The translations under genes were made by a program, and so were the position numbers. Positions 4,515 through 38,833 of a stretch of DNA of 64,000 nucleotides are shown piece after piece. Source of the DNA: Candidatus Omnitrophota bacterium (GTDB lineage Bacteria > Omnitrophota > Gorgyraeia > Zapsychrales > Zapsychraceae); contig JAJDCB010000024.1 in NCBI GenBank assembly GCA_029261065.1, positions 102,364-166,363 on the forward strand. Direction: 5' to 3'. The stretch's first letter is position 1. Each line of letters begins with the position of its first letter. Below the pieces are notes generated by a model. That model ran no database searches and had not been told where the DNA came from. It was given only the letters and a program-made list of their open reading frames with translations.

Positions 4515-4520
4515 GGGAAA

Positions 4521-17351: not shown

Positions 17352-17947
17352 ATTCCAGCCCCAAAACCTAGAATGCGTTCACTCCCATCAATTGGCAGTA
17401 AATACATATGACAGTTTAATTCTGTTTCAACAATCTCAAATAAACTTTCTATTAATAAAATTTTATCTTCCTGCAAAGCCATATCCATTATTAACTCAGA
17501 GAAAAGTGTTCCAGAGAAATCACGTATAACAGAAGGTGGCTCAGGTAACATCTTTATCTGAAAGTCTGATGCAAAAACATTAGAGATGGCACTTGATAAT
17601 ATATTACCAATTTCCTGAACAGTACTTGAAACATATTCATCATATGCTTTTGTTGTACCAACCTTTTGTCCTATAAATAGATCTGTTAATATGAAAGCAT
17701 CTTCTAGTTGAACATAAAATAAAAATTTAAAGGGCGCATCGCCCGACAACAAAATAAATGATCCAATGGCCTCGAAGTCAGATTGATTTACGCTAGCCGT
17801 TATCTCTGTAATATCTACAAAATTGACATTCTTTAATTCAATTTTTGCAGTTGTGTTAAGCATCTTAGTCAATACTTCTGAGGATTTTTCAATGCTGTGT
17901 TCAGCGACTAGCTGTACCGCACGATTTACATTTTCATTTGATTCCAT
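17348..17947 (-). CDS. cheC: CheC/CheX-family CheY-P phosphatase (single recognisable active-site motif)
   Basis: S-x3-E-x2-N motif (STVQEIGN) followed by a Pro about 19-20 residues later. 199 aa. Position immediately upstream of cheD as in cheC-cheD operons. First-half motif degenerate. Confidence 0.55.
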   Translation of the reverse strand: MESNENVNRAVQLVAEHSIEKSSEVLTKMLNTTAKIELKNVNFVDITEITASVNQSDFEAIGSFILLSGDAPFKFLFYVQLEDAFILTDLFIGQKVGTTKAYDEYVSSTVQEIGNILSSAISNVFASDFQIKMLPEPPSVIRDFSGTLFSELIMDMALQEDKILLIESLFEIVETELNCHMYLLPIDGSERILGFGAGI

Positions 17948-17951
17948 TTAA

Positions 17952-18437
17952 TTAAAATTCCTCTGGTTCTTCACCAAAAACACGACAATGAACCTTACCA
18001 GTATCCAAAAAAAAATCAACTTGAACACCCTTATCTCCACCCGTTTTTGAGTTTATGATACGAATGTTGTGTTGTTTTAGAATAATTTTTGTAGCATCAA
18101 TGTTTTGTTCACCTATATTACTAGTTACCATCCTCAAAACTTTTCCTCCACCAAAAATCTTTGCCGTCAAAGAGTCTTTAGGGATTGTGTATTGTTTTTT
18201 CATTGATTCTAGTAAATCATGGATGCCTGTATCTGCAAACTTAGCACGTTTAAAAGTGGGTTTTTCATGATGACCGGATGAGTCCGGTAACATTATGTGC
18301 AGCATACCACCAATTTTTTTACTATCATCATATAAACATATGGCTATACACGAACCTAATGTTGTACGAATAACATATGGAGCTTCACCAATTTTATAGT
18401 CTCCTATACCAACGACTAACTTATTATTTTCTGTCAT
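17952..18437 (-). CDS. cheD: Chemoreceptor glutamine deamidase CheD
   Basis: VVGIGDYKIG ... LGSCIAICLYD ... GGMLHIMLPDS; catalytic Cys and His blocks present. 161 aa. Confidence 0.85.
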   Translation of the reverse strand: MTENNKLVVGIGDYKIGEAPYVIRTTLGSCIAICLYDDSKKIGGMLHIMLPDSSGHHEKPTFKRAKFADTGIHDLLESMKKQYTIPKDSLTAKIFGGGKVLRMVTSNIGEQNIDATKIILKQHNIRIINSKTGGDKGVQVDFFLDTGKVHCRVFGEEPEEF

Positions 18438-18490
18438 GTCTTAATTAGTAGTTTTGAATTTGAGATAGAATTTCGATAAGATAAACTTGT

Positions 18491-21286: not shown

Positions 21287-21307
21287 ATTTTAGTCCTTCC
21301 TTAACCT

Positions 21308-22357
21308 TTAGTTTAGGTTACAGATTTTTGAGATGGCTTTACTAAAATTTTGAATATCTAATTCTAAATCAACAGCACCAGCGTTGTTAGCAGCTTTTGG
21401 CATTCCGTAAACAACACAGCTTTCTTCATCTTGCCCAAGAACATAGGCACCTTTTTCATGTAATTTGACCAGCCCTTTTGTTCCATCATCACCCATACCT
21501 GTTAATATCAATCCTAATATACTCCCTTTAAAATTTTCACTTACAGAGTCAAATAGCACATTACACGATGGACAAAAACCAGAAACTTTTTCTTCTCCAG
21601 CTAAAGATAAATAAGGACCCGTGGAACCAGATTTAAGTCTCATTTGAACTCCTCCACGCGCTAGATAACACCAACCTTTTTTTATTTTGTCTCCCTCTTC
21701 TGCTTCTTTGACATTAATTTTTGATAATTTGTCTAATCTTTCAGCAAAACTTTTTGTAAATTTTTCAGGCATATGTTGAACCCAAACGATCGGAGGACAT
21801 TCTTCTGCTAAATGTGGTAAAAATGCAGTTGATGCCTGAACCCCTCCTGTTGACGATCCTAGTGCAATTAGATCAATTTTTCTCTTAGGTAGTACGCTTA
21901 AATCAAATATCTTCTTTTTCGTTATGTTGCCATCTGGTGCTGTTTTATTAATAAGCTTAAACTTATTACGTAAAATAATACCCTCTATTTTACGAACAAG
22001 AGTATGAATTATCTCATCAATGCCTAAGGCATCCGATGCTGGTTTGACAAGATAATCAACAGCCCCATATTCTAAGGCTTTAATAGTTACTCTAGAGCCT
22101 TCATTCGTCAAAGAACTAAACATAAAAACAGGTAGTGGACAATCCTTCATGATACATCTCAAGGCTTCAAGACCATTCATGACAGGCATTTCGCAATCTA
22201 ATATTAACAAATCAGGCTTTTTTAATTTAACTAAATCAATAGCTTCTTTGCCATTTTTGGCCTGACCAACAACCGAAACTTTTCCTGTAGCTTCTAATTT
22301 TTCTTTTAAAACACTTCTTAAAAAAGCAGAATCATCTGCTAAAAGTACATTAGTCAT
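21308..22357 (-). CDS. cheB: Chemotaxis methylesterase/deamidase CheB (receiver plus methylesterase)
   Basis: N-terminal REC (VLLADDSAFLR ... LLILDCEMPVMNG). C-terminal catalytic triad blocks GSSTGG, VQHMP, GMGDDG. Confidence 0.95.
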   Translation of the reverse strand: MTNVLLADDSAFLRSVLKEKLEATGKVSVVGQAKNGKEAIDLVKLKKPDLLILDCEMPVMNGLEALRCIMKDCPLPVFMFSSLTNEGSRVTIKALEYGAVDYLVKPASDALGIDEIIHTLVRKIEGIILRNKFKLINKTAPDGNITKKKIFDLSVLPKRKIDLIALGSSTGGVQASTAFLPHLAEECPPIVWVQHMPEKFTKSFAERLDKLSKINVKEAEEGDKIKKGWCYLARGGVQMRLKSGSTGPYLSLAGEEKVSGFCPSCNVLFDSVSENFKGSILGLILTGMGDDGTKGLVKLHEKGAYVLGQDEESCVVYGMPKAANNAGAVDLELDIQNFSKAISKICNLN

Positions 22358-22363
22358 ACAATA

Positions 22364-23179
22364 TTAAGTTGATTTCTGAAACATACTCGAACGAATGAGT
22401 GTAAAATTTGAATTTATATCATTGATAGTTTCCGACAAACTTATAAACAAATAACCGTTCGATGCAACATTTTTTTCAACATTTGAAACAATTTCTTGTT
22501 TTGCTGGTTGATCGAAATAGATAAGAACATTTCTCATAAATATAATATCAAATTCTTTTTCAGAAAAGGCCTTTTTTAAATTGTGATTTGAAAATTGAAC
22601 CTTATTTTTTATAGAGTCAATAACTTTATATTCTGGTTTCGAGCCTTTAGATGCTTCTTCAATAGTAAAATATTTTGACACAAGAGAGTCCGGTGTTTGT
22701 CTTAAGCTTCTTTCATCATAGACGGCATTTCTAGCAAAGCTAACAACAGACGTATTGATATCTGAGGCAAAAATAGAATAGGTTATGCGTGAATTTTTTT
22801 TTGTAAATTCTTTTAAAAGAATAGAAAGGGAATAGGGCTCTTCGCCTGTCGAACAGGCAGCACACCAAATTTTAATTTTTGACTTTTTTTCAGCAAGAGT
22901 AGGAAGAACGACATCATACAAATAATTCATTTGAACAGAATGTCTAAAAAAATATGTTTCATTTGTCGTTATAGCATTTATAAATTCTTCAGTTTCTTCA
23001 CTATTAGGTTTCTTAACAACATCAATATACTCAGCAAAATCTTTTAAACTTAGTTCATTAACACGTTTGCCTATACGAGCACTCACCAAATGCTTTTTTG
23101 AGTCTCGTAACATGACCCCTGTTTTTTGATACATCAAATCTCGAATTTTTTTAAAATCAATATCTGAAATATCTTCCAT
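22364..23179 (-). CDS. cheR: Chemotaxis protein methyltransferase CheR
   Basis: CheR N-terminal helical domain plus SAM-MTase core (IWCAACSTGEEPYSL). 271 aa. Confidence 0.9.
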   Translation of the reverse strand: MEDISDIDFKKIRDLMYQKTGVMLRDSKKHLVSARIGKRVNELSLKDFAEYIDVVKKPNSEETEEFINAITTNETYFFRHSVQMNYLYDVVLPTLAEKKSKIKIWCAACSTGEEPYSLSILLKEFTKKNSRITYSIFASDINTSVVSFARNAVYDERSLRQTPDSLVSKYFTIEEASKGSKPEYKVIDSIKNKVQFSNHNLKKAFSEKEFDIIFMRNVLIYFDQPAKQEIVSNVEKNVASNGYLFISLSETINDINSNFTLIRSSMFQKST

Positions 23180-23184
23180 TGGTT

Positions 23185-23697
23185 TTATTTAGTATTACCT
23201 ACTCCTATTTCTCTAATGACATCTTCTTGTAACTTGCCTAAATCAATAATTGTCACCATTCTCCCTTCAAGTTCGCCAATACCAACAACGCAATCTTTAT
23301 CAATATTTGAGGCAACAGATGGGGCTGGGTCTATTTTTGATTTTGACAATTTAATGTTTTCTAATATTTCATCAACAATAAAACTAAAAGAAACACTACC
23401 GACCTCAGCGACAACAATTTTTGTTTTTTCACTAAAGGCAACATCCGCCAAATTAAACTTAATTCTTAAATCAAAAACACTGATTACGCTACCTCGAATA
23501 TTTATAACGCCTAAGACAAACTTAGGCATTTGAGGAATGTGCGTAATCATTTGAACACGATTGACTTCTTGAATATCAATAATCCTAACGGCATATTCTT
23601 CGTTTGCAAGTTTAAAACAAACGAATTGCTCCACATCATCAGAATCTTCCACATTTTGAATGTCTAACATATTGTCAACTGTTAAGTCTTCTACCAT
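23185..23697 (-). CDS. cheW: Chemotaxis coupling protein CheW
   Basis: 170-aa CheW-like domain (FVCFKLANEEYAVRIIDIQEV...VINIRGSVISVFDLR). Confidence 0.9.
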   Translation of the reverse strand: MVEDLTVDNMLDIQNVEDSDDVEQFVCFKLANEEYAVRIIDIQEVNRVQMITHIPQMPKFVLGVINIRGSVISVFDLRIKFNLADVAFSEKTKIVVAEVGSVSFSFIVDEILENIKLSKSKIDPAPSVASNIDKDCVVGIGELEGRMVTIIDLGKLQEDVIREIGVGNTK

Positions 23698-23721
23698 TGT
23701 TAATCCTTATCTAGAAGGTTT

Positions 23722-25980
23722 TTAACCAAAACTTAATTTTTCTTCATCATTATTATCTTTGGCTCTTGCTTTAGTTTGTGTGTTTCCTTTTTTAGCAGTA
23801 ATTGTTACAGGTTTTGAAGGCAGCTCTGTTGTATCGTTAGATTTTGTTTGAGTGGACTCTCTAGATTCTCCACCATCTTCCGATACACGAAACCGACCAA
23901 CAAGGTCAATAAGTGTTGCCGATTGTGCTGCCATTTGTTCTGAAGAGGATGCCAATGACTCAGAAGCGGTAGCATTCCCCTCGGTAATGGCTGTATTTTC
24001 TTCCATGGTAGCTGCTTGTTCAGATGTTGCATTAGAAATACTTTTTAACTGCTCTGCAACACTAGTAATATCCACAAGCATTTCTTTTAAACTATCACCA
24101 GCTTCTTTGGATAGATTAACACCTTGTTCAACTTGGTTAGAACTCTCAACGATAAGATTCTTAATATCTTTAGCAGACTCAGCACTTCTTTCTGCTAACT
24201 TTCTTACCTCATCAGCAACCACAGCAAAGCCCTTACCATGCTCACCAGCCCGAGCAGCTTCAATGGCCGCATTTAAAGCAAGTAAATTTGTTTGATCTGC
24301 AATGTCTGTTATTATTTCTACGGCTTCCGTTATCTGCTTTGAGCTTTTTTCTATTGAGCCTATAGCTTCAATAGTATTATCCATACCTTCAGCCGTTTTT
24401 TCCGCTTTCTTGGACACACTTTGAGCCGAATCATCAGCAGATGATGCACTGGTTGAGTTAGATTGGACTGAACTTGATAATTCTTCAAAACTTGCAGATT
24501 GCTGTTGCGCACCATCTGAAATTTTACTAGCACTTGTAGCAATCTCGTCAGTTCCTAAATTTAATTGTTGAGATGAAGATTTCACTTGTATTATGATATC
24601 TTCAATTTTAGTTACAAATTTGTTAAAATTATTAGCCAAGTCTCCTAATTCATCTTTATTCGCTATCTGTATTCTTTTTGTTAAATCCCCTTCGCCTTCT
24701 GCAATATCCTGCATATTTTTATTTATATAATTAATTGGTTGCGTAATCGATTTACTAACAAAAATACCTGTTACAGCAACAATACCAGCAATGATAAGTG
24801 CGACAAGAAGAACTTGCCAGGTTAAACTTTTTATAGGCGCCATAATTTCACTTAATTCAACCTCGGAAATTAAAAACCAATCTAGCCCTTCAATATCTAT
24901 TGTTGAATATGAAGATACAACTTTTTTTCCTTTATAATTTACATCTTCTATTGTACCGGTTTCTCCAGCCACAGCATTTTTACTAGACTCATTTTCAACC
25001 TTAATTTTTTGAATGGTTGATTCTTCTGAAAATCTGGAATCCGATTTAAAAAATTTATCAGAACCAATTATGAAACTTTCACCTGTTTCACCCATACCAG
25101 AGTGCTCTTGAACTACTTCATTAATCCCATCAACAGGCATTTGAAAAACTAAAGCTCCTAGTAGCGTGTCTCCATCATATATTGGTGAAGCTGTAAAAGA
25201 GGCGGGTGCATTGTAAGAGGGCTCATAAAAATCAAAATCGACAATATTAACAAAATCTTTTTGTCCACTTAACAACGCCTCTTTCGCCGCTCTTGCAAAA
25301 TTTGTATTGCTATATGGTCCATTAAACAATGAAGTTGCATAATCAACTTCCTTAAAAACAGAATATACAATGGCCCCATTTACAGGTTCAACCAAAAAGA
25401 TATCGTAATAACCAAATTCTTGCAAATAAGAACGAATTATAGCGTGATATTGTTCATGCAATTTAGAATATATTGTACTATCATTGGCTTTTTCTAAGGC
25501 TTCTTTGGCACCAATAGGATGTGAATTATTTGCAATGTAGTGATATTGCAAGACTTTTGCTGCAACTGTTTTTGGCATCCAACGATCAACAGCACTGGTG
25601 TCTGAACCATCTGTGTTAGCCTGTTGATATGTATATCGGTCTCTTAGTTTCCCATCGATCGTAGATTTATTTTCCTTATAAAAGTCACCTTCTGAATCTT
25701 CAATTTTTGAATAAGCATACGAAAATTGTTTCATTGCCTGAACTATCATACCATTCTGTGAAAAAGTTTTTACCTGGCCCTTATATGAAGCCATATTATC
25801 TTCCAAAGATTTTTTCTTAATGGCACTAACAGCTTCTAATTTTTTTTGTAAAACGTCCGAAGTCATTTTTGAAGCCGATTTAATACTTAAAATTGAAACA
25901 ATTAGCAAAGGAATCAAACCCAATGCCATAAAAAAGAAAATCAATTTTGTTTTAATTTTGAATTTTTTAAAAATGTTCAT
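23722..25980 (-). CDS. mcp: Methyl-accepting chemotaxis protein with about 350-aa periplasmic double-Cache-like sensor, HAMP and MCP signalling domains; Ser/Thr-rich C-terminal tail
   Basis: TM1 [21 protein letters not shown] and TM2 [19 protein letters not shown]. Highly conserved hairpin tip region ...[35 protein letters not shown].... No C-terminal NWETF-like pentapeptide. Confidence 0.95.
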
Positions 25981-26379
25981 TTAAGAACCTCCAATTGTGT
26001 TTGTAGATTTAATATATTTTGTAAGCGTCCATTGATCAGTATCATCAATGCCGTCAAAGGAAACAGCAACGTCATATAAATTGCCTGGTTGCTCCTTTTG
26101 GCAACGTTTAACACAAGCAATTAATTCTAAAGGCTTTTCATAAGAAAGCTCCTCGGGTTTATAAAAAGTAGAGCTATATTTTTTAAAATGTGGTATATAA
26201 ATTTTTAAATTCAAAATTTCTTTTTTAGAATAGCTTTTTTTTGAATAAAACAAAAGACCACCAACACTAATATTTTTTGTCTTAGAATTTTCTTGAGTGC
26301 TAAAATTATTTCGCCTTTGACAATCTAAGGAAAAATGTTTATTCAATCGGCTGTATTTTCTTTTCTCACTTATAGACAT
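25981..26379 (-). CDS. Single-domain PilZ (c-di-GMP-binding) protein embedded in the che operon
   Basis: Canonical PilZ motifs RxxxR (RKYSR) and D/NxSxGG (NISVGG). 132 aa. 10-nt overlap with cheV upstream and abuts the MCP gene downstream. Confidence 0.75.
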   Translation of the reverse strand: MSISEKRKYSRLNKHFSLDCQRRNNFSTQENSKTKNISVGGLLFYSKKSYSKKEILNLKIYIPHFKKYSSTFYKPEELSYEKPLELIACVKRCQKEQPGNLYDVAVSFDGIDDTDQWTLTKYIKSTNTIGGS

Positions 26380-27296
26380 AATTTATCAACAGTTTCAACA
26401 AGCAAATCGATTTCTGGTTTTGTTAATTGCCCATTAGCACCAACTTTTCTACACTTATCGGCCAACTCATCCGTTATCATAGAAGAAAAGACAACGCACG
26501 GTAAATCCTTTAAGTCTTTCTCTGCGCGAACCTTACTAATTAAATGCAATCCATCCATCTGCGGCATTTCTATATCTGTAATAAGTAAATTGCAAAAATC
26601 ACTTACATCTTTAAAACCTTCTGATTTTACCTCGTCTTGAAAGGCATTCCATGCCTTTTCACCATCTGTAAAAGCCTTAACTTTGTATCCAGCTGTTGAA
26701 ACATAATCAACCAATAATTGACGTATATATGCAGAATCTTCTGCTATAAAAATTTGTTTAGTTGATCTATCGACTTGATTTGTTGATTTTGGCTTAGCAT
26801 CGGCAACGCCTTCTAATCCAGCTTCGGGATTGATGATAGAAGCAATTTTTTCAAAATCTAGCAGAAATAGTATTCGATCTTCTATTTTGATAACTCCAAC
26901 AGCATATCCCATTTTAGAATTAACTAATCCCGACGGGGCACCAACATCCTTCCAAGAAATACGATGAATGCGGGTTACTTCATTAACCCAAAAACCTGCT
27001 TGAAGTTTATTGAATTCAGTAACAATAATACGACTGGCTTTTGGGTCGTAATCAACATCAATTTTTAATTGTTTAGCAAGTGTAACAACAGGCGTAATTC
27101 TACCACGTAAATTAACGACGCCAGCTACGGATTCATGAGAATCAGGAACAGGAACAATACCAATATTTGCCCGAATAATCTCTCTTACCTTGGCAACATT
27201 AATTCCATAATATTCATTTCCGATTTTAAACTCAATAATTTCTAACTCATTCGTTCCTGCCTCTAACAGAATTTGCTGCTTATTATTTTCGCTCAT
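26370..27296 (-). CDS. cheV: Chemotaxis protein CheV (CheW-like domain plus C-terminal receiver)
   Basis: N-terminal CheW-like (LEIIEFKIGNEYYGINVAKVREI). C-terminal REC (IFIAEDSAYIRQ ... LLITDIEMPQMDG ... VVFSS ... LTKPE). Confidence 0.9.
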   Translation of the reverse strand: MSENNKQQILLEAGTNELEIIEFKIGNEYYGINVAKVREIIRANIGIVPVPDSHESVAGVVNLRGRITPVVTLAKQLKIDVDYDPKASRIIVTEFNKLQAGFWVNEVTRIHRISWKDVGAPSGLVNSKMGYAVGVIKIEDRILFLLDFEKIASIINPEAGLEGVADAKPKSTNQVDRSTKQIFIAEDSAYIRQLLVDYVSTAGYKVKAFTDGEKAWNAFQDEVKSEGFKDVSDFCNLLITDIEMPQMDGLHLISKVRAEKDLKDLPCVVFSSMITDELADKCRKVGANGQLTKPEIDLLVETVDKLCL

Positions 27297-27417
27297 TTTA
27301 TGATCCTTATTTACTATTTGATTATGTTATTAATATAATCTACTGTTGATGTAAGTCAATAAAAAAGCAATATTTTTCACATCTTATACAAAACAACTAG
27401 GGAACCAATAGGTGGTG

Positions 27418-27771
27418 CTATAACGAATCTAAAATTTTTTTTGCTATCTCAACTGTTATTGGTTTTTTAATTAAAGAGATTGCGCCATTATCCTGTAATA
27501 TTTTCTCTCTCTCGTCGGTAGCTTCTACAGTAGTTACGATTAATTTTTGGTTTGGAAATTTAGCTTTAATATTTTTTAAAATTGTCAATCCATCTTCTGC
27601 GCCTAAATTATCATCAAGGATAATCAAATCAAAATTTTCTTGTTTATCTAATAAAGCATAAAGCCCGTCAGGATCTAATGTTGTTTTGACATCAGCACCA
27701 CACTCTAAAAAAAGATTTTTATGCTTGTTTAGTGCGAACTCGCCATTATCCAATAAACAAATTTTTGCCAA
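27418..27771 (-). CDS. Single-domain receiver protein
   Basis: ICLLDNGEF ... LIILDDNLGAEDG ... LIVTTVEA ... LIKKPI. Confidence 0.75.
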   Translation of the reverse strand: MAKICLLDNGEFALNKHKNLFLECGADVKTTLDPDGLYALLDKQENFDLIILDDNLGAEDGLTILKNIKAKFPNQKLIVTTVEATDEREKILQDNGAISLIKKPITVEIAKKILDSL

Positions 27772-27786
27772 TTTGATATCCTTTTT

Positions 27787-28143
27787 TTAAGCTATCTTTG
27801 ATTTAAAATCCAAATATGCACTTTTTAACTGTGGGCAGAGTTTACTTATTTCTGCAATATCACTTTCCGCTTTTGAAAGTTCATCAATACTAGCAGCAAT
27901 TTTTGAAACATGATCTATTCTTAAATTTGCATACACACCCTTTATTCTGTGCGCTATCGCTTGTATATCTTCATGATTTTGTTGTTCAATTCCTTTTTCT
28001 AAAGCTATTAAGTCAGTATCACATTGCGTAAATGAAGAAATTAATATACTCTTATAAACATCTACAGGAATACTTAACTCACCACTTTTTTCTTTAAGAA
28101 AACTATCTAGATCAAAGTCATTGTTTTCATTTTCATTTGACAT
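27787..28143 (-). CDS. Stand-alone histidine phosphotransfer (Hpt) protein
   Basis: Hpt H-x-x-K-G motif (IAHRIKGVYANL) in a 118-aa all-helical protein. Confidence 0.7.
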   Translation of the reverse strand: MSNENENNDFDLDSFLKEKSGELSIPVDVYKSILISSFTQCDTDLIALEKGIEQQNHEDIQAIAHRIKGVYANLRIDHVSKIAASIDELSKAESDIAEISKLCPQLKSAYLDFKSKIA

Positions 28144-28163
28144 AAATTTGTCCTAATTTTAAA

Positions 28164-28331
28164 TTAAAATAAATTTAAACTTTTTTGCGTATCATCTTCT
28201 TGGATGTTATTTTTATTGAAATTTTTTGCCAAGATTATAACAAGAGAAACGATAACTATGGCTATAATCACAAATGATATAACCACCCATAATTGTGTTC
28301 TTTTCTTTTTTGGATCATAAAATATTGACAT
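28164..28331 (-). CDS. Possible small single-TM membrane peptide (55 aa), absent from the ORF track (below 60 aa)
   Basis: Hand translation: MSIFYDPKKKRTQLWVVISFVIIAIVIVSLVIILAKNFNKNNIQEDDTQKSLNLF. Fills the otherwise empty 196-bp gap between the Hpt gene and the tandem-CheX gene. No clear SD. Confidence 0.2.
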   Translation of the reverse strand: MSIFYDPKKKRTQLWVVISFVIIAIVIVSLVIILAKNFNKNNIQEDDTQKSLNLF

Positions 28332-28340
28332 ATCTAAAAT

Positions 28341-30014
28341 TTAAGCTTCAAAGGTCTTGATTTTTTTCATCGCATCGTCTAATTTTTTTGCCGCATCCTT
28401 AGCAGATACAGTTACAATCTTCAATGTGATTTTAGACTCTTTTTTTTCTTCCTCTTCATTATTTGCTTTTTGAGCAACAGAATCATTGACTGTTTTTAAC
28501 TCATCTAATCTATTAACTTCATTACTCTTATCTTCTAAACTTGTATCATTAGAATCAGATTTTTCTGGTTGAGCAGCTTCTACTGCTTTATTTAAGGCTT
28601 CAAGAGGGTCTCTATCCTCATCGCTCTTATTTAAAGGTTCATCATCAGATTTTGTTTTTGATTCATCAAGCGCGTTTTGAAGTGCTGTTAAAGGATCAGA
28701 TTTTTCTTCTTTAGAGTCTTCAGTAGAATTACCAGGTGCCTTATTGGAATCATTAACAGCATTTTGAAGCATCGCTAAAGGATCTGCATTAGCTTCCTTC
28801 GCTTGTACACTCTTTTCGTCAGTTGGAGCAATTTTACTCAAAGCATCTAGCGCTTGTAACTTAGAGTCATTGACTGGTGTTTGGGCTGCAGAACCTTCAC
28901 TACTTTCCATAACTTTGTAAGTAAATATTATTAGAAATTGAAAATCCTCACATTTAAAATTCATTTCTAAATTGGATGTTTTTTCGGTATCACCAGAAAA
29001 TTCTAGATCAACGCCCATTACAGTAGATGGAATACTTATGTCAAAACCATAAGCTCCTTCAGCCCCCCCTAATTTCGTTTTAGCACCTCCGGCAATCATA
29101 TTAATTAATTCACCAACTCCATCCGTAACATCGGAATCAACTTCCTCAATGTCCATATATAACATTTTTGAAACAATGAGGCACGCTGCTTTTGAAGATA
29201 AACAAGCAGCGATATTTCCTTCAACCTTACCAGTCACACCAATAGAACTGACAATCCCTTCATCAGCAGAAGGCAGTATTTTCTCGTCAGTTTCTTCGAC
29301 ACTCAAAGTAAGCGTGGCTGAAAATGTATCAACGACAGCTTCTCTTAAAGCGTCTTTTAATGCCTCTTGAATTTCCATATCAGAAAATTTCCTTTCACTA
29401 GATACATTTTGATTATTGCTGATAATTGGCGTATCAACAATATTTTTTTCATCTTTTTTCAATTCAAGAGAAGAGCTATCCCCTGAAGCATCCAAAGCCG
29501 TTAATTTGTCTAATGCAGAAGTGGACGCTTCATCAACTTTAGCTGTATTTAGTTTATAATCTAAAATAGCAAGTATTTCTATATTATCTACTTTGTACTT
29601 TTTTAATATTTCGATTGTTTTGCCTTGACTATTTGACTTAACAATTTTTTTACCTCGAACGGTAGTTGGAATACTAATATCAAAAGGATGTTCTTTATCT
29701 GGTCCACCGATCCGATTTTTCATCCCACCAGCAATCATGTTAAGCAACTCGCCTATACCGTCTTTGACATCACTGTTAAGTTCCTCAATTTCCATATACA
29801 ACATTTTAGACACAATCTCACAGGCAATTTTTTCTGACATATAAATAGAAACAGTGCCTTCAAGAGATCCCGCTATTCCAATAGAACATATAAGGCTCTC
29901 CTCTACAGGTGAGATTGTGTCATCTAGGACTTCGGCTGATAACGCCATAGTTGTTTGAAAGACATCCAGAACAGATTCATTCAAAGTTACAATTAAATCA
30001 TCATGATAGGACAT
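28341..30014 (-). CDS. Tandem CheX-domain protein (two CheC/CheX-type phosphatase domains) with a long acidic C-terminal tail carrying repeated DPLxALQNA motifs
   Basis: Two D-x3-E-x2-N motifs each followed by Pro about 23 residues later (DGIGELLN...P and DGVGELIN...P) within two clearly paralogous ~150-aa halves. Tail has DPLAMLQNAV, DPLTALQNAL, DPLEALNKAV. Confidence 0.75.
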   Translation of the reverse strand: MSYHDDLIVTLNESVLDVFQTTMALSAEVLDDTISPVEESLICSIGIAGSLEGTVSIYMSEKIACEIVSKMLYMEIEELNSDVKDGIGELLNMIAGGMKNRIGGPDKEHPFDISIPTTVRGKKIVKSNSQGKTIEILKKYKVDNIEILAILDYKLNTAKVDEASTSALDKLTALDASGDSSSLELKKDEKNIVDTPIISNNQNVSSERKFSDMEIQEALKDALREAVVDTFSATLTLSVEETDEKILPSADEGIVSSIGVTGKVEGNIAACLSSKAACLIVSKMLYMDIEEVDSDVTDGVGELINMIAGGAKTKLGGAEGAYGFDISIPSTVMGVDLEFSGDTEKTSNLEMNFKCEDFQFLIIFTYKVMESSEGSAAQTPVNDSKLQALDALSKIAPTDEKSVQAKEANADPLAMLQNAVNDSNKAPGNSTEDSKEEKSDPLTALQNALDESKTKSDDEPLNKSDEDRDPLEALNKAVEAAQPEKSDSNDTSLEDKSNEVNRLDELKTVNDSVAQKANNEEEEKKESKITLKIVTVSAKDAAKKLDDAMKKIKTFEA

Positions 30015-30030
30015 AGCCTATATCCTTATG

Positions 30031-30420
30031 TTAACCCGCTGCGTTTAAAATTGGATCAATAGCTGCTTTTAATTGATCTGGTGTAAAGGGTTTTGGTATA
30101 TAACCAGCCAAATTTGGATTAGCTGCTTTTGCCTCTGCAATTTTATCATCTGTTCCCTCAGTTGTAACCATAATGACAGGTATTTCGGCAACGGCAGGCA
30201 CTTTAGCCACAGCACCGACAAATTCAATACCAGACATATTAGGCATGTTCCAATCGCACAAAACTAGGGCAACATCTTGGAAATTACCTGCTAAGGTTTC
30301 TATACCTACCGCCCCATCAGGTGCTTCTAAGATTTCATTTTCAAACCCAGCTTTTTTAATAATTTGAACAATCATTTTTCTTTGGACTCCTGAATCATCA
30401 ATAACTAGAATTTTTTTCAT
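30031..30420 (-). CDS. cheY: Chemotaxis response regulator CheY (second copy)
   Basis: ILVIDDSGVQRKMI ... LVLCDWNMPNMSG ... VIMVTT ... YIPKPF. Confidence 0.85.
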   Translation of the reverse strand: MKKILVIDDSGVQRKMIVQIIKKAGFENEILEAPDGAVGIETLAGNFQDVALVLCDWNMPNMSGIEFVGAVAKVPAVAEIPVIMVTTEGTDDKIAEAKAANPNLAGYIPKPFTPDQLKAAIDPILNAAG

Positions 30421-30458
30421 TTCTTAACTCCCTTTTATTTGGATAATTATAAAAGTTA

Positions 30459-31040
30459 TTAGCTCTTAATTTTGTCTATCGGTAACAAAACAAAATCAAC
30501 AACTAAAACCTTCTTTTTCTTTATGAAGAAACTCATTTCTGTTAACTTTTCTTCATTATAATTAAATTCCACACCCTCAGGCACATCATTTCTATATTTT
30601 AAAGGGGCAGAAATAATTAACTCACCATAACCTTCATTTTTGATATCATTTTTAGTTTTTCCAGAAATAACATTATGAATTTCACCGCAATTATCCATAA
30701 CAAACTCTTCATCTTCATCATCAAACCCAGTTTGCCCCAAGGCTTTTAATAGCTCCCGAGCATAAACCTCTTCTACATAAAAAACCATAGTTCCACAGGT
30801 ATCTTTACTGTCAAATTTTGATTTATCAGCATAAAAATTAATAACTGAAATAAAACAGGGTCCATTAAATTTCTGAAGACCAAAAACTCTCATGCGGCTT
30901 TCATATTCAATGATATCTTTTTCCTCAAATTCAGGATCCTGGGAGAAAATAGCGCTAGCCATTGTTTCGCAGGTTTCTTCAACGGCTTTCATAACAATTT
31001 TAATTATTGGGTCATTTTGAATAACATCTTCTTCACTCAT
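30459..31040 (-). CDS. cheX: CheX-type CheY-P phosphatase
   Basis: Exact CheC/CheX/FliY consensus D-x3-E-x2-N-x22-P present once: DNCGEIHN followed by 22 residues then P. 193 aa. Confidence 0.7.
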   Translation of the reverse strand: MSEEDVIQNDPIIKIVMKAVEETCETMASAIFSQDPEFEEKDIIEYESRMRVFGLQKFNGPCFISVINFYADKSKFDSKDTCGTMVFYVEEVYARELLKALGQTGFDDEDEEFVMDNCGEIHNVISGKTKNDIKNEGYGELIISAPLKYRNDVPEGVEFNYNEEKLTEMSFFIKKKKVLVVDFVLLPIDKIKS

Positions 31041-33684: not shown

Positions 33685-34158
33685 CTAATATAACAATTTT
33701 TCGATGGCAGAAAGCAATTCTGGCGTCTGAAACGGCTTTTTCATATAAAAATCAACCCCCGCATCCATCGCCTTTTCCTTCGATTCATCGTCCACCGAAC
33801 CTGTAAGCATTATGACCGGAATTAAAGGTTCCTTAAATTGATCCTTGATTCTAGCTGTTAACGCGGATCCATCCATATCTAATAATTGTCCATCTGTAAT
33901 CACCAAATCAGGCTTATTCATTTGCAGGACATCAAGTGCCTCTTGGCCAGACAAGGCCGTTAAAACTTCAAAATTTTTTGATCGAAGGATGTATGCCAAT
34001 AATTTAATAAGATCTGGGGCATCATCGATAATGAGAATTTGAAAAGATTGTTTCTTCACAACTTCACTAACTTTTTGTAGAAGGCAATAAAAAGAAGAAT
34101 GTTGAACCTTTACCAAGTTCTGACTCAACCCACATTTTGCCACCATGACGTTCAACAA
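33685..34158 (-). CDS. Receiver-domain response regulator. Real start probably GTG at 34059 (about 124 aa) rather than the track start, which overlaps the kinase gene by 92 nt.
   Basis: ILIIDDAPDLIKLL ... LVITDGQLLDMDG ... VIMLTG ... YMKKPF. In-frame GTG 7 nt after the kinase stop codon gives MKKQSFQILIIDD. Confidence 0.8.
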   Translation of the reverse strand: MLNVMVAKCGLSQNLVKVQHSSFYCLLQKVSEVVKKQSFQILIIDDAPDLIKLLAYILRSKNFEVLTALSGQEALDVLQMNKPDLVITDGQLLDMDGSALTARIKDQFKEPLIPVIMLTGSVDDESKEKAMDAGVDFYMKKPFQTPELLSAIEKLLY

Positions 34159-35893
34159 TAATTTTTGATATTACCAAACCTAAACCGGTATTTCCCGACT
34201 CTCTTCTCGCACCCGTCGTTAACTGTCCGAATATTCTAAATAATTTTGAAATATCTTCTTTTTTAATCCCAACGCCTGTATCTTTAATTGCAATACAGAT
34301 AATGCCTTGCTGCACACTAGAAATAATGGAAACTCCACCCTTTTTTGTAAATTTTGTTGAATTTTCAATCAAATTTAACAAAACCTTCTCAATTTTTTCT
34401 TCATCAAACATGCAAACTGGTAACTCTTTATCTAATTTCAGAGTGATTTCAAGTCCTTTCTCTACAATTGCTGGCTCGCATTTATCTTTAACGCTTTTAA
34501 TTAAATCATTAATATTTCCTTGAGCTAATTTAAAATTTGTTTTTCCCATTTCAAGCTTTTGATAATCAACAACATCATTGATGAGACAGTCCAATCTATC
34601 TAAATTTCTTTTTGCTGTATTTAAAAAGTCTTGTTGCTCTTCGCTAATATCACCGGCCGAACCATCCAAAATTATACCTATACTCCCTTGAACAGCTGTT
34701 ATTGGACTTTTTAATTCATGGGCAACCATATTTAAAAAATCATCTTGCATCTTTGATGCCTTTTCAATACCTTTTTCAGCAATTTTTCGCTTACTTACAT
34801 CATTAAGGACCCCGATAGATCCCGTCACAACACCTTCTTCATTCTTTAATATACTTAAAGTTAATCCAACATCAATTATCTTATTATCTTTTCTTTTTAT
34901 TTTTGTTTCAATATTATGCCGACTTCCTGATTTACGAAAATCCGCTGATCTAATTTTCTTCCATTCCTCAGGTGGATAGAGCAAACTCACTTGTTGCAAG
35001 TACAACTCTTTTTTTCCCATACCTAAAAGCTCTTCCGTATTTTTATTCCAAGAAACAATCCTTTCTTGATCATCAACAAACATAATCGAGACGCCGGAAT
35101 TTTCAAATATTAATTTGTAGCGCTCCTCAGCTTCTTTTGCATCAACTTCCACTTGATTTAGTTCTCTGTCTCGATTAGAAAAATTTGTAATATCCGTAAT
35201 GACAACCAGTATTCTCGAAGGCTTACCATTTTCATCTCTAATTAAATTTTCAGACACCAAACCAATCTTGATGGAGTTATCTTTTGTTCGCAATTCTATT
35301 TCATAAGGTTCTAAATCTTCGCCTTCGAGTCGATCGGAAAATTTTTCTAATATTCTCATTTTGCTATCTTTTGGAATAAAGGGTAACATTAAAATATTTC
35401 TCCCCACATATTCCTGTATATCATATTGCAACCAGTCTGATAATTTATTATTTAACTTCACAATCTTTCCGTTTATGTCCACCACAACAATTGCTTGTGG
35501 GGATAGGTTAAATATCATTTGATAATCGAGAGGCTGTGGCAAACTTTGTCCTTTGAGACTAAGGTTTTCTTCAATAAGAAGTCTCGCGACATTGACACTA
35601 TTACTCCCTAAAATATCAGCATGAGCAGGCTTCTTCTCTTTTAATTCTTCATGAATATCTAATTTTCCAGAAACATCAAAAACGATATTTAAGGTTGGAT
35701 CTTTAAGAAAAGGATTAAAATCGGAAGCTATTTGAAGACCTAATCGATTGGCCAATTCAATGGCGGGGGTATCCAATTCGGAGGCAACAACAGCAAGGAT
35801 ACGCACGGTTGTTGTGTTACTTAAAATTTCAAGCAGAGACTTACAATCATCGCCTGATCCAATAATAAGAGCGCTATATCCGCTATTTGACAT
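34067..35893 (-). CDS. Cytoplasmic sensor histidine kinase (N-terminal unknown domain, PAS, PAS, HisKA, HATPase_c)
   Basis: H-box MVAHELKSPITAV. ATP-lid blocks (LIENSTKFTKKGG; DTGVGI; GNTGLGL). Two PAS-like segments. No TM helices seen. Confidence 0.9.
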   Translation of the reverse strand: MSNSGYSALIIGSGDDCKSLLEILSNTTTVRILAVVASELDTPAIELANRLGLQIASDFNPFLKDPTLNIVFDVSGKLDIHEELKEKKPAHADILGSNSVNVARLLIEENLSLKGQSLPQPLDYQMIFNLSPQAIVVVDINGKIVKLNNKLSDWLQYDIQEYVGRNILMLPFIPKDSKMRILEKFSDRLEGEDLEPYEIELRTKDNSIKIGLVSENLIRDENGKPSRILVVITDITNFSNRDRELNQVEVDAKEAEERYKLIFENSGVSIMFVDDQERIVSWNKNTEELLGMGKKELYLQQVSLLYPPEEWKKIRSADFRKSGSRHNIETKIKRKDNKIIDVGLTLSILKNEEGVVTGSIGVLNDVSKRKIAEKGIEKASKMQDDFLNMVAHELKSPITAVQGSIGIILDGSAGDISEEQQDFLNTAKRNLDRLDCLINDVVDYQKLEMGKTNFKLAQGNINDLIKSVKDKCEPAIVEKGLEITLKLDKELPVCMFDEEKIEKVLLNLIENSTKFTKKGGVSIISSVQQGIICIAIKDTGVGIKKEDISKLFRIFGQLTTGARRESGNTGLGLVISKIIVERHGGKMWVESELGKGSTFFFLLPSTKS

Positions 35894-35900: not shown

Positions 35901-38645
35901 TTAGTCCGTTTTAAGATTTGCTTGTTTTAATAATTTAGAAACGCAGGATAATAATCCATCACGATTAAATGGTTTGGAAAGATGTTCATCTGCACCAGCT
36001 TTTTTAGCAGAATTAATAAGACTTAACGATGTATGTGATGTTAGTAATATTATGGGAATAATAGCTGTCTCTAGGCGAGATTTCAAAATGTTGATTGCTT
36101 CAACTCCATTCATTCCCGGCATATCATAATCAATGACAATCAAATCAGGCTTTTCTTTAAAAGTAGTCACCACACCTTCTTTACCATTACTTGCCTTTAT
36201 AACACTGTATCCTGAAAATTCCAAGATTTTTACAATAATCTTTTGGACATCTTCATCATCTTCAACAACCAAGATTCGAGACCCACTACTTTTTGGTTTC
36301 TCACGCACTTGGGGCTTGATTATTTTCTTTTTCTTTTCGACAATTATTTCTTCTTTTGGTGCACTCTCCTCCGAAATAATATCTTTAACAATATTTTCTT
36401 CTGGTTCTTGAGTTTCAAAAACAATAGGTTCTTTTTCAGCTTCAACAAAAGGCACATCTTCCGAAACAATCGGTACTTCTGAAACTTCTATTTTTGACTC
36501 AAGGGCAGCCTCAAGAGCTAATTGCTCTTCATCCAAATCTATAGCATCTTCTTCATCTAACTCAACCTCATTGCTTGTTTCATTTGTTTCGATTTCCTTA
36601 TCTTCCTCTTGATTTTCAACGGCTTCTTCAGGTTCTATGGTTTGATCTTCTTTTAATATTTCAACAGGTTCTATTTTTTTTACTTTTTTAACAACTTTAG
36701 CTTTCTTTACTTCTTTGACTTCCTCAACAGCTTCCTGCGCCTCTATTTCCTCCAACTCCGCTACAGGTTCTGTTCTTTTTGGCACTTTTTTCTTTTTAAC
36801 CACTTCAATTTCTTCAGATAACTCATCGTCAATATCGTCGTTAACCTCCATAGTTCTATGTGACAGTTCAGAATCATCCTCCTCCACAGGCGGCAATGTC
36901 TCGGCCCCCTTGGTTAATGTCCCTACAGATTTTGTAACCTCTTCAAAAGTTGTAATCCCTTGAGCAATTTTCTCTATCGCAGAAATTTTTATCGCTTTAA
37001 ATCCACCCCTTATAGCTGTTTTTCTAATTAAAGCTTCATTCGATCCTTTTGCAATAATGTCTTTTAATTCTTGTGTAATTTTTAAAACCTCAAATACGGC
37101 TGTTCGTCCAAAATAACCTGAATAACCACACTGTTGACATCCATCCCCTTTATAAAATTTTGTAATATTATACTCATCGATCAAATCTTGATATTCTTCT
37201 AAATAATCAGCATCAGGCGTATATTCAACCTTACATTTGCTACAAATAACTTTTACTAACCGTTGACTAACAATTAAAATAACAGCTGAACCAATCATAT
37301 AAGGATCAATACCAATATCAGCCAATCTTGAAATTGTAGCAATGGTGCTATTGGTATGCAGAGTGGATAATACAAGATGACCTGTAATAGAAGCTTTTAA
37401 TGCTATTTCAGCCGTTTCTAAATCCCTAATTTCTCCAATAAGAATAACGTTAGGGTCTTGACGTAAAATACTTCTTAATCCAGAAGCAAACGTGACACCT
37501 CGAGCAGGATTAACTTGAATTTGATTAATCCCCTCATTAACAAATTCAACAGGATCTTCAATCGTAACAATATTGGTTGTTTCACTTTTTACATAATTTA
37601 GAGCAGCGTATAACGTAGACGTTTTACCAGATCCTGTTGGTCCTGTTACAAGAACCATGCCTTGCGGCTGAGTAATCGCTTTTTGAAAAGCATTCGCCTC
37701 TTTTTCATTAAATCCAATTTTTTCCATATCCGTCTTAGCTTCAGCAGCATCAAGAATTCTCGCTACAACTTTTTCACCGTAATACGTTGGAATCGTTGAG
37801 ATACGAAAATCCACCTTTCGTCCCTGGACAAGCAAATTAATGCGACCATCTTGAGGTTTCACATCTTGAGCGATATCTAAATTTGCCAATATTTTAATAC
37901 GCGCAATCATCTTTGAATGCACGTTTTTAGGAACCTTCATAATATTTTTTAAATCACCATCAACACGATACCTAACATCAACATTTCCTTCTCGTGGTTC
38001 TAAATGAATATCACTGGCCCTTACTTTAATCGCATCACTTAATATTAAATTGATTAATTTTACGGTGGGACTACTATTTTCTTCTGTTTCAGCAATATCA
38101 ACCGTCTGACCGCCAGACATTTCAATATGAATACCACTAGGATCTTCTTCTTGAACAGCAGCTTCAGCTTCTTCCTCAGCACTCTCATCAACAACATCAT
38201 TCATCGCATCAAATAATTTATCATTAGATTGATAATACTCTTCAATATGTGTGTTAATTTCGCTTCTTGGAGCCAAGACGGGTTTTATAGGGACATCGTA
38301 AATATATCTTAAATCATCAAGAGCAACTACATCGTGAGGATTGCTCATGGCCAAAATTAAATTATCATCTTCTAAACAAATAGGAAATACGCCATGACGT
38401 TTGGCTAATTCGTAATTCATTTTTTTAACAACTTCAGGATCCAGATTCCCATTTTCAATATGATAAACTTGCATCTTAAACAAATCAACAGAAATGTCTA
38501 ACAGCTGTTTTTCCTTAACATAGCCTAACTCTATTAAAGCTTCATGAACTGGCACTTTTAAAACTAAATGTTTTGCTTTAGCTTCTTTAAGTTGCTCTTC
38601 GCTTATTAATTGGTTTTTTAATAGTTTATCAACTAAAGATGCCAC
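35901..38645 (-). CDS. GspE/PilB-family type II secretion / type IV pilus assembly ATPase fused to a C-terminal receiver domain through an about 215-aa Glu/Lys-rich linker
   Basis: N-terminal T2SE_N/MshEN-like domain. Walker A GPTGSGKT. Tetracysteine CSKC...CQQC. C-terminal REC: RILVVEDDEDV ... LIVIDYDMPGMNG ... IILLTS ... LSKPF. Start is GTG (38643-38645) with strong SD AAGGGAG 5 nt upstream. Confidence 0.9.
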   Translation of the reverse strand: MASLVDKLLKNQLISEEQLKEAKAKHLVLKVPVHEALIELGYVKEKQLLDISVDLFKMQVYHIENGNLDPEVVKKMNYELAKRHGVFPICLEDDNLILAMSNPHDVVALDDLRYIYDVPIKPVLAPRSEINTHIEEYYQSNDKLFDAMNDVVDESAEEEAEAAVQEEDPSGIHIEMSGGQTVDIAETEENSSPTVKLINLILSDAIKVRASDIHLEPREGNVDVRYRVDGDLKNIMKVPKNVHSKMIARIKILANLDIAQDVKPQDGRINLLVQGRKVDFRISTIPTYYGEKVVARILDAAEAKTDMEKIGFNEKEANAFQKAITQPQGMVLVTGPTGSGKTSTLYAALNYVKSETTNIVTIEDPVEFVNEGINQIQVNPARGVTFASGLRSILRQDPNVILIGEIRDLETAEIALKASITGHLVLSTLHTNSTIATISRLADIGIDPYMIGSAVILIVSQRLVKVICSKCKVEYTPDADYLEEYQDLIDEYNITKFYKGDGCQQCGYSGYFGRTAVFEVLKITQELKDIIAKGSNEALIRKTAIRGGFKAIKISAIEKIAQGITTFEEVTKSVGTLTKGAETLPPVEEDDSELSHRTMEVNDDIDDELSEEIEVVKKKKVPKRTEPVAELEEIEAQEAVEEVKEVKKAKVVKKVKKIEPVEILKEDQTIEPEEAVENQEEDKEIETNETSNEVELDEEDAIDLDEEQLALEAALESKIEVSEVPIVSEDVPFVEAEKEPIVFETQEPEENIVKDIISEESAPKEEIIVEKKKKIIKPQVREKPKSSGSRILVVEDDEDVQKIIVKILEFSGYSVIKASNGKEGVVTTFKEKPDLIVIDYDMPGMNGVEAINILKSRLETAIIPIILLTSHTSLSLINSAKKAGADEHLSKPFNRDGLLSCVSKLLKQANLKTD
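35904..36281 (-). other. Receiver (REC) domain portion of the GspE-REC fusion protein (approximate coordinates)
   Basis: Last about 126 residues contain all receiver signature positions (DD, D, T/S, K). Confidence 0.8.
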
Positions 38646-38738
38646 AACATCTCCCTTGGGTGTAGTAACACTTATATTATGACTACAGAATATACACTCT
38701 TACTTAGTTTAGCATTCGAAGTATATTTATTGTAACTC

Positions 38739-38766
38739 ATTATACTTCATAATATTTAGCGGGCAA
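38739..38766 (-). promoter_or_regulatory. Candidate sigma70-like promoter for the GspE-REC / kinase / receiver transcription unit
   Basis: Minus strand reads TTGCCC-N16-TATAAT (perfect -10). About 90 nt upstream of the GTG start. By eye only. Confidence 0.2.
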
Positions 38767-38833
38767 ATGTTAAATCAGTTTTTTTATAATTTGATTTAAA
38801 ACTATTAGGTAGGATTAATAACATGTGGACAAA

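Follow-up and report, generated by a model that had tools for sequence, protein, structure and literature searches.

A gene that joins a pilus motor ATPase to a response-regulator receiver lies within a stretch of 64,000 nucleotides from an Omnitrophota bacterium (assembly GCA_029261065.1, contig JAJDCB010000024.1; this whole 64-kb stretch is termed here the window). The gene, pilB-REC, occupies 35901..38645 of the minus strand and encodes 914 amino acids (aa), in the order MshEN domain, N2 and C-terminal domain (CTD) ATPase, long linker and receiver, as read from the open reading frame (ORF) and from Pfam, NCBIfam and PDB matches. We consider it probable, at roughly 60%, that the product is a hexameric motor of the PilB type (type IVa pilus assembly) with a phosphorylatable receiver in cis as its regulatory input. 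The fusion is an uncharacterised variation on a known regulatory theme, and not a new kind of system.

The fusion gene

The ORF is single and uninterrupted over its 914 codons. It starts with GTG, and a Shine-Dalgarno sequence, AAGGGAG (38657-38651), is found 5 nt upstream of this codon. The upstream intergenic region (38646..38833, minus strand) also carries a promoter-like TTGCCC-16-TATAAT at 38766..38739. A promoter and terminator scan upstream of the gene gave counts not above those of shuffled sequences, and this element is a consensus match only; the position of the one promoter match is suggestive.

The MshEN/N1 domain spans residues 1-140 (38226..38645, minus strand, as are all parts of the gene). 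The Pfam MshEN match itself covers residues 58-140 at 69.1 bits against a gathering threshold of 23.1, and the predicted local distance difference test (pLDDT) values are 81-94. The T2SSE ATPase core, residues 188-571 (36933..38084), matches at 439 bits (E 1.4e-131, threshold 24.9), with pLDDT mostly >90. An acidic Glu/Lys-rich linker follows (residues 572-790, 36276..36932), and then the receiver (residues 791-914, 35904..36275), where Response_reg (PF00072) matches residues 791-901 at 91 bits against a threshold of 30.2 and pLDDT is 86-98 through residue 910. The original prediction, made from the sequence without database searches, had described a complete GspE/PilB-type ATPase, a long Glu/Lys-rich linker and a complete receiver with its phospho-acceptor signature, all within one gene. 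Each of these parts is borne out by the matches above and by the residues given below.

Could two genes have been joined through a sequencing or assembly error? Nothing was found in favour of this, though the ATPase and the receiver are separate ORFs in two related loci, L094 and L114 (L numbers denote loci used for comparison). Against it stand the continuous frame, an independently assembled Logan contig that encodes the identical 914-aa protein, the alignment of a relative, P0002, to the window protein over 100% of its length, and the fused architecture of 120 of the 120 best database matches. A frameshift or misassembly is ruled out by these observations, and the chance of an artefact is negligible. 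In L094 (1616-4985), PilB-REC is split into a 304-aa ORF and, 36 bp later, an ORF for the PilB core plus receiver, with an orthologous kinase gene next. The likely cause of this split is a frameshift, or decay to a pseudogene, in that metagenomic contig.

The ATPase and the MshEN domain

The ATPase has a Walker A motif, GPTGSGKT, at residues 335-342, an Asp box (E363/D364), Walker B (E405), a His box (H430) and a tetracysteine motif (C468, C471, C503 and C506). The Walker A, acidic and His boxes and the tetracysteine are invariant in the family and align with those of PilB 5zfr. The invariance of the catalytic residues points to motor activity being under selection.

To which branch of the secretion and pilus ATPases does the protein belong? 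Among the NCBIfam hidden Markov models (HMMs), PilB (TIGR02538) ranks first at 615.4 bits, followed by GspE (TIGR02533) at 544, TfpB at 473 and ComGA at 267. The top solved structures are Geobacter PilB (5zfr, 5tsg and 6olj) and Myxococcus xanthus PilB (3jc8), which match residues 4-572 at ~440 bits; Thermus PilF and Vibrio EpsE are the next PDB matches. Because both the best NCBIfam model and the closest structures are PilB, the protein is classed by sequence as a PilB-like assembly ATPase and not as a PilT-type retraction ATPase.

The MshEN domain was compared with the cyclic di-GMP (c-di-GMP) binding motif of Wang et al. (2016, PMC5013675), a tandem 24-residue RLGxx(L/V/I)(L/V/I)xxG(L/V/I)(L/V/I)xxxxLxxxLxxQ. 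Motif 1 of the window protein has S, V, Q, K and H at positions R1, G3, G10, L21 and Q24, and motif 2 has P, H, S and L at R1, G3, L21 and Q24. The Arg and first Gly (G3) positions are lost from both motif copies in the window protein and in its family. The usual MshEN c-di-GMP site is thus absent, and control by c-di-GMP through MshEN was rejected, as the motif is degenerate in protein and family alike.

The receiver and the linker

The receiver has the acidic pair D796/D797, the phospho-acceptor D839, T869 and K891-P892, and a (beta-alpha)5 pattern is predicted by AlphaFold2 (AF2; pLDDT 86-98). Among the 120 best homologues, the Walker A lysine, the four cysteines, D796, D839, T869, K891 and P892 are without exception invariant. 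Position 797 is acidic in 119 of the 120 (E in 101, D in 18). At the aromatic switch position, three residues before the conserved Lys, the window protein has His888 (codon 35982-35984), where Tyr is found in 117 of the 120 and Phe in 2. Histidine at this position occurs in some active receivers, e.g. Spo0F, and is not disqualifying. Two other deviations are an Asp at D+2 (usually Met or Thr) and a Ser at T+1 (usually Ala).

The linker consists of 219 aa, with 54 Glu, 14 Asp and 28 Lys. The AF2 prediction, made with a 79-sequence alignment, shows it as mostly disordered (pLDDT mostly <50), with short helices at 606-617, 629-650 and 705-716. No significant tandem DNA repeat was found in the linker. 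A repeat array and a rigid single helix were considered as descriptions of it and discarded: there is no meaningful tandem repeat, AF2 confidence is low and the helices are short.

Does the long linker belong to the design of the family? The ATPase-receiver linker has a median length of 22 aa and is never shorter than 20, and long linkers occur only in P0001, the window protein (~218-219 aa), and P0002 (181 aa). Other members of ~900 aa have instead an enlarged N-terminal region of 254-345 aa. A long linker was thus rejected as a family feature; by these alignments it is lineage-specific and lies outside the family design. That more than 100 members keep the linker at 20-23 aa points to a defined contact within the molecule. 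In the window protein, the tether would keep the local concentration of the receiver high, yet relax the geometry; together with the divergent switch residues, the 219-aa tether may mean an altered coupling in the window lineage.

The tether also bears on a different role for the receiver. It might be a phosphate sink, or a module for localisation or docking to a signalling array or pole, or the nucleotide state of the motor might modulate the phosphorelay. With a flexible tether of 219 aa, recruitment or a sink is a better fit than rigid allostery. Receivers, Hpt domains and hybrid kinases are unusually abundant in the loci, which suggests multi-step relays, and large coiled-coil proteins, possible scaffolds, are co-transcribed upstream in L003, L090 and L091. 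A signalling role of M. xanthus PilB in exopolysaccharide regulation has also been reported (PMC5544727). On the other side, the linker is held at 20-23 aa in more than 100 members, which fits a defined intramolecular contact, and the catalytic residues of the ATPase are all invariant. A sink or localisation role is therefore judged improbable.

The PilB-REC family

The MshEN-T2SSE-REC architecture is found in at least 120 protein clusters (90% identity), which include all 120 best database matches. The named clusters are mostly from Candidatus Omnitrophota metagenome-assembled genomes (MAGs), with a few from Elusimicrobia, Firestonebacteria and unclassified bacteria. They go only by generic database names: 'ATPase, T2SS/T4P/T4SS family', 'PilB', 'TadA' or 'response regulator'. 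Domain databases certainly already contain the architecture. The original prediction that it might be undescribed stands in part, as no characterised example is present in the searchable literature; the family is not rare, and the reverse order, REC-MshEN-T2SSE, has already been tabulated.

The closest relative of the window protein is 49% identical over the full length. The window host seems to be a rather isolated lineage, because the nearest PilB-REC relative is only 49% identical. Relatives of the citrate synthase encoded in the window are 68-79% identical, and all those that carry an organism name are Omnitrophota.

A neighbour-joining tree of the ATPase core, which is without support values and indicative only, places the Omnitrophota-type fusions in one clade apart from unfused PilBs. 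Proteins of >830 aa, the window protein included, form one subclade. The unfused PilBs L041, L049, L051 and L067 from Omnitrophota MAGs are found elsewhere in the tree; those of L041, L051 and L067 belong to pil operons that include pilC, and the available L049 sequence showed no pilC. As the unfused Omnitrophota PilBs lie elsewhere, the fusion is, on this tree, a separate paralogous lineage. Further C-terminal receiver fusions of 37-42% identity are present in loci labelled as MAGs of Deltaproteobacteria (L014), Acidobacteriota (L026), Frankiaceae (L036) and Calditrichota (L063). They occupy at least two further tree positions, which is indicative of at least two to three independent fusions.

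The L041 operon (2-5777, Omnitrophica GWA2_41_15) has two tandem unfused PilBs (564 and 573 aa), then 3 bp later a REC-HD-GYP protein (361 aa), and then pilC. The REC-HD-GYP protein is a further two-component/c-di-GMP regulator inside an Omnitrophota pil operon.

The sequence [VI]RYR[IV]DG[DYE]L was tried as a motif specific to the family. It separated the initial set, but many unfused metagenome PilBs match it, and it was dropped. These matches brought to light the split pilB/REC operons described below.

The partner kinase and the free receiver

The pilB-REC gene heads a three-gene unit. A cytoplasmic PAS-PAS HisKA histidine kinase of 608 aa (34067..35893, minus strand; H-box HELKSP at residue 392, Pfam) begins 7 nt after the pilB-REC stop, and a stand-alone receiver of ~124 aa (33685..34059, minus strand, Pfam) is the third gene. 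The listed ORF of the free receiver (33685-34158, TTG start) overlaps the kinase gene by 92 nt; a start at GTG 34059, 7 nt after the kinase stop, is more plausible, and orthologues in L003, L091 and L092 are of 115-121 aa. The transcription unit that the original prediction had set beside a large che locus is thus found as described, with the che locus at ~15.9-31.0 kb. The fused and free receivers are reciprocal best matches within the window (66 bits).

For comparison, 26 non-redundant fused loci were collected, the window included, of which 19 are of the Omnitrophota type (at least 47% identity). A PAS or kinase gene lies directly downstream of the fusion in 13 of the 19. The DHp-CA core of the window kinase matches exactly one kinase per locus, at 203-246 bits, in 12 related loci (L003, L005, L086, L087, L088, L089, L090, L091, L092, L093, L094 and L097); all other kinases in any locus score at most 156 bits. 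These orthologous transmitters bear differing sensors (PAS, dCache, HAMP-PAS or REC), and they are positioned directly downstream of the fusion, two genes off or upstream of it. The pattern is that of a dedicated, co-inherited kinase with exchangeable inputs. By this pattern of orthology, the constant partner of the fusion is a classical HisKA kinase, and not CheA. The PAS-PAS kinase of the window is the putative cognate kinase and the more likely phosphodonor, because the orthologous kinase is kept while most members are without che genes.

Receivers also accompany the fusion. In the long subclade (window, L003, L090, L091 and L092) the next gene after the kinase encodes a small receiver, and a receiver directly precedes the fusion in 10 short-type loci. 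In L087 (1617-9558), a complete V/A-type ATPase operon is found directly upstream of the REC, PilB-REC and PAS-kinase genes.

The chemotaxis locus

The che locus of the window (15886..31040, minus strand, Pfam) encodes CheX, REC, CheX-CheX, Hpt, REC, CheW-REC, PilZ, a methyl-accepting chemotaxis protein (MCP), CheW, CheR, CheB, CheA, CheD, CheC and three RECs; a CheV-like protein is among its products. CheA consists of two Hpt domains, P2, dimerisation, HATPase and CheW domains, with no C-terminal REC.

Is the proximity of pilB-REC to che genes fortuitous? In L003 an array on one strand consists of a gene for a 924-aa coiled-coil protein, a gene of the U445 family (see below), PilB-REC, a PAS kinase, REC, REC, CheX, CheW-REC, PilZ, two MCPs, CheW, CheR, CheB and CheA, with gaps of at most 83 bp. 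L091 has the same gene order as L003, and the order is shared with the window at ~50% protein identity. In the distant L026 (Acidobacteriota), the fusion is followed by REC, CheA, CheW, MCP, REC, CheB and CheR, and no classical kinase is present within 10 kb. Because the order recurs in L003, L091 and L026, the che adjacency is no coincidence. Among Omnitrophota-type fusions, che genes follow in the window, L003 and L091 only, and most members have none within 10 kb. The che link is thus real but subclade-specific, and secondary to the dedicated kinase. The proposal that a Che-type phosphorelay gates the motor holds to this extent: the che order does recur, but the constant partner is a HisKA kinase and most members lack che genes.

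CheA might nonetheless phosphorylate the fused receiver directly, as a CheY-type receiver, with the PAS kinase serving the free receiver only. This would be compatible with a motor controlled by a receiver in cis. In L003 and L091 the che genes come straight after the pilB-REC unit, and the window has the same order; the L026 fusion heads a CheA array without a classical kinase within 10 kb; and the window CheA bears two Hpt domains and a P2 domain. Other observations speak for the HisKA kinase. Most short-type members (~700 aa) retain the orthologous HisKA kinase although no che genes lie within 10 kb of the fusion. The top NCBIfam receiver models for the fused REC are of the PhoB, MtrA, NtrX and PleD type, and CheY is not among the best 25. 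Within the window, the fused REC is closest to the free receiver of its own unit and not to any REC of the che cluster, and the unit is set apart from the che genes by two unrelated genes, with gaps of 199 and 144 bp. CheA as the donor is therefore rather unlikely, but it is the strongest of the alternatives considered here.

A CBS-pair protein (33078-33485, minus strand), located between the unit and the che locus, and a 622-aa protein (31065-32933, minus strand), with two transmembrane (TM) segments and a coiled coil, are both absent from the syntenic L003 and L091. No Pfam or NCBIfam family matched the 622-aa protein. From the N-terminus it has one TM segment, ~230 aa that probably lie in the periplasm, another TM segment and an extended coiled-coil tail, a topology resembling that of chemoreceptors, and its gene is 24 bp upstream of that for CheX.

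Other signalling genes of the window have unusual compositions. Che accessories at 27418-30014 (minus strand) include a 557-aa protein with two CheX domains and a stand-alone Hpt followed by a weak receiver, and a 216-aa protein at 16266-16916 (minus strand) has REC and HisKA-like domains without an ATPase domain. At 11495-13065 (minus strand), a 379-aa protein (11926-13065) with two PilJ-type N-terminal sensor domains, and no MCP signalling domain, is followed by a stand-alone receiver; acetyl-CoA synthetase and isochorismatase genes separate it from the che locus. A gene for a small PilZ protein is conserved between the CheW-REC and MCP genes in the window (25981-26379, minus strand), L003 (10704-11111) and L091 (13229-13633), and the RxxxR and (D/N)xSxxG c-di-GMP motifs of the che-cluster PilZ are intact. 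A second window PilZ gene (43239-43634, minus strand) is found beside Pnt genes.

Links to pilus machinery

Evidence for a pilus comes from relatives of the window protein. In L099, only 29 bp separate the fusion from a downstream pilC (T2SSF); the distance is 2.5 kb, also downstream, in L090 and its near-duplicate L096; and in L063 the order is pilB-REC, pilD (A24 peptidase domains) and pilC. Unfused counterparts also exist. Seven metagenomic loci (L126, L140, L147, L148, L161, L163 and L167) have split pilB, REC, pilT and pilC operons, in which the stand-alone receiver begins -49 to +49 bp from an unfused pilB. L114 belongs to the fused clade (core 55% identical to P0010), and its receiver is encoded separately, 104 bp downstream; in L021 the order is histidine kinase, REC, pilB, pilT and pilC. 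After the conserved Lys, the split-operon receivers have K-V/S-H-F or K-A-S-M-I-P instead of K-P-F, which suggests a distinct pilus-associated receiver subfamily.

Several points weigh against the proposed pilus motor with a receiver in cis. Pfam searches of all larger ORFs and a six-frame prepilin-motif scan revealed no T2SSF/PilC, PilT, PilM-Q, secretin, prepilin peptidase or prepilin motif in the 64-kb window. Among the 19 Omnitrophota-type loci, only 2 have pilC within 5 kb, against a baseline of ~55 of 74 unfused PilB loci with pilT and/or pilC within ~2 kb. The score of 615.4 bits does not reach the PilB equivalog cut-off of 675.65. As a paralogue clade, the fused proteins may serve a specialised function, or one that has nothing to do with pili. 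The receiver of the window protein departs from the family at the switch residue, D+2 and T+1, and its very long tether argues against rigid allosteric coupling. Lastly, the AF2 output has no inter-domain contacts or predicted aligned error and is silent on receiver-ATPase docking. The suggested pilus or type II secretion output thus has no machinery gene within the window to point to, but has pilC or pilD beside the fusion in the relatives L090, L099 and L063.

Might the ATPase drive a filament machine other than a type IVa pilus, e.g. one like the type II secretion system (T2SS), or an undescribed apparatus tied to giant coiled-coil proteins and U445? The GspE equivalog cut-off (630.25) is not reached either, at 544 bits, so that the score falls under both cut-offs. 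The fused clade is paralogous to the unfused PilBs, and pilT is never adjacent to Omnitrophota-type fusions. A coiled-coil gene and U445 are directly upstream of the fusion in L003, L090 and L091, a giant homologue is near in L089 and the window, and giant-protein loci of Omnitrophota are often flanked by T2SS or type IV pilus (T4P) genes, according to a recent survey (bioRxiv 10.64898/2026.06.07.730766). Yet the top structural and HMM matches are PilB, not GspE, and the giant proteins, which have no signal peptide or TM segment in a simple hydropathy scan, look cytoplasmic. The pilD-pilC or pilC neighbours in L063, L099 and L090 fit a pilus and a T2SS alike. A non-pilus machine appears doubtful on balance, and a PilB-type pilus motor is preferred.

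Giant coiled-coil proteins and other neighbours

The flanks of the window are occupied by central metabolism: Sdh, heme synthesis, acetyl-CoA synthetase, PntAB, fumarase and citrate synthase. A 3526-aa coiled-coil ORF (53387-63967, minus strand) is free of TM segments, and its only Pfam matches are to coiled coils and lie below threshold. It lies ~15 kb upstream of pilB-REC, with metabolic genes in between, and is homologous to the giant ORF beside PilB-REC in L089 (1-6864; 25% identity over 2500 aa, E 3e-54). Large coiled-coil genes are also found upstream of PilB-REC in L003 (479-3253), L090 (2-4201) and L091 (867-5717), with only U445 between.

The U445 proteins (~390-460 aa) have an MVRYP N-terminus, a Pro-rich stretch, one TM segment and a coiled coil, and have no Pfam match. 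Copies are present in L003 (3260-4597), L091 (5724-7103), L090 (4208-5461) and L089 (6900-8081), and in three of these genomes (L003, L090 and L091) the gene is 1-7 bp upstream of pilB-REC. In the window, a 418-aa protein (50890-52146) with TM segments at both ends is a marginal U445 match (E 1e-4).

Proposed mechanism and significance

How might such a motor be controlled? In the proposed scheme, the dedicated PAS-PAS kinase would phosphorylate D839 of the tethered receiver. The phosphorylated receiver would dock on the ATPase of its own hexamer, and this would change motor activity or engagement of the PilC/PilM platform. The free sibling receiver, in the manner of PilH towards PilG, could be a sink or antagonist that competes for the same phosphoryl groups. 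In the window subclade, where the three-gene unit heads the che operon, chemoreceptor signalling is for that reason probably integrated; it would feed the same node via shared receivers, CheX phosphatase or cross-phosphorylation by CheA. Pilus extension would then be the output of the che-linked unit.

A broader reading is that a whole lineage of pilus motors has a built-in phospho-switch that starts or stops pilus extension; the lineage would take in most Omnitrophota-type PilB-REC proteins, with convergent fusions in MAGs of Acidobacteriota, Calditrichota and Deltaproteobacteria. This is put forward tentatively, as a possibility somewhat short of even odds. If true, the motor itself would be the terminal response regulator of a two-component or chemosensory pathway, a pilus counterpart of CheY on the flagellar switch. 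Host attachment in Omnitrophota is believed to depend on type IV pili, and in these ultra-small, host-dependent bacteria the phospho-switch might represent a decision point for attachment to prey or host.

CheY-like control of T4P motors is a matter of continuing work in Pseudomonas, Myxococcus, cyanobacteria and Xanthomonas, where the proteins are separate and the control partly indirect. The fusion and the matching split pilB-REC-pilT-pilC operons constitute Rosetta-stone evidence that direct control of PilB by a receiver is possible. The motor-receiver, soluble kinase and free receiver also offer a minimal three-protein system for biochemistry and structure. For the unstudied che clusters of Omnitrophota, the fusion provides a concrete hypothesis of output, and a candidate behavioural switch.

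Comparison with known systems

With respect to Omnitrophota, type IVa pilus genes are common across all classes, according to one survey (PMC10066038). This survey and a second one (bioRxiv 10.64898/2026.06.07.730766) discuss type IVa pili and giant ORFs, and text searches of the two gave no match to PilB, 'response regulator', chemotaxis or flagella. No characterised MshEN-T2SSE-REC protein was found in the searchable literature; most subscription journals were outside its reach, and this negative is not proof. A 2024 review of PilB cofactors (PMC11656802) has no mention of a receiver-fused PilB. A literature lead to GSU0435 proved irrelevant to the fusion.

The window protein shares with the PilBs of Geobacter (5tsg, 5zfr and 6olj) and M. 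xanthus (3jc8) the N1 (MshEN), N2 and CTD arrangement, Walker A and B, the Asp and His boxes and the tetracysteine. It differs in the added linker and C-terminal receiver, in its separate clade and in its usual location outside pilB-pilT-pilC operons.

A receiver covalently joined to an ATPase of the PilB/GspE/MshE type is already known in Gmet_3473 of Geobacter metallireducens, a REC-MshEN-T2SSE protein that is catalogued and uncharacterised. By architecture, the only level at which the two were compared, the receiver is N-terminal there, whereas in the window protein it is C-terminal (791-901) and the protein starts directly with MshEN. Supplementary Table 4 of Wang et al. (2016, PMC5013675) includes REC-MshEN-T2SSE (Gmet_3473), GAF-MshEN-T2SSE and MshEN-T2SSE-cNMPbind; MshEN-T2SSE-REC is not among its architectures.

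Regulatory modules on the same motor family are also found in the c-di-GMP control of MshE and PilB through MshEN, and in PilZ-FimX-PilB; a PilZ that is c-di-GMP-competent by motif is present in the linked che cluster. In the fusion family, however, the MshEN motif is degenerate and the attached regulator is a two-component receiver. The split pilB/REC/pilT/pilC operons represent the unfused counterpart, with a receiver encoded directly 3' of pilB. Their proteins are separate polypeptides; except in L114, the PilBs are 38-41% identical to the fused clade, and the receivers have K-x-(H/S)-(F/M) in contrast to K-P-F.

Control of PilB by receivers in trans is established in cyanobacteria, Pseudomonas and Xanthomonas, and so is control by c-di-GMP via MshEN or PilZ-FimX. 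PilG/PilH of the Pseudomonas Pil-Chp system, PixG/PixH of Synechocystis and other PATAN-REC proteins, and DrdR/EmvR of Xanthomonas are, like the fused receiver, phosphorylatable receivers that control pilus extension. These regulators are separate proteins and some act indirectly, whereas the window receiver lies within the motor polypeptide and the conserved kinase is a HisKA sensor kinase rather than a CheA/ChpA. The ChpA-type CheA of the Pil-Chp class has a C-terminal receiver, and the window CheA is without one. Systems of the PilG/PilH type often have an antagonistic receiver pair fed by one kinase, and the fused and free receivers of the window resemble that logic.

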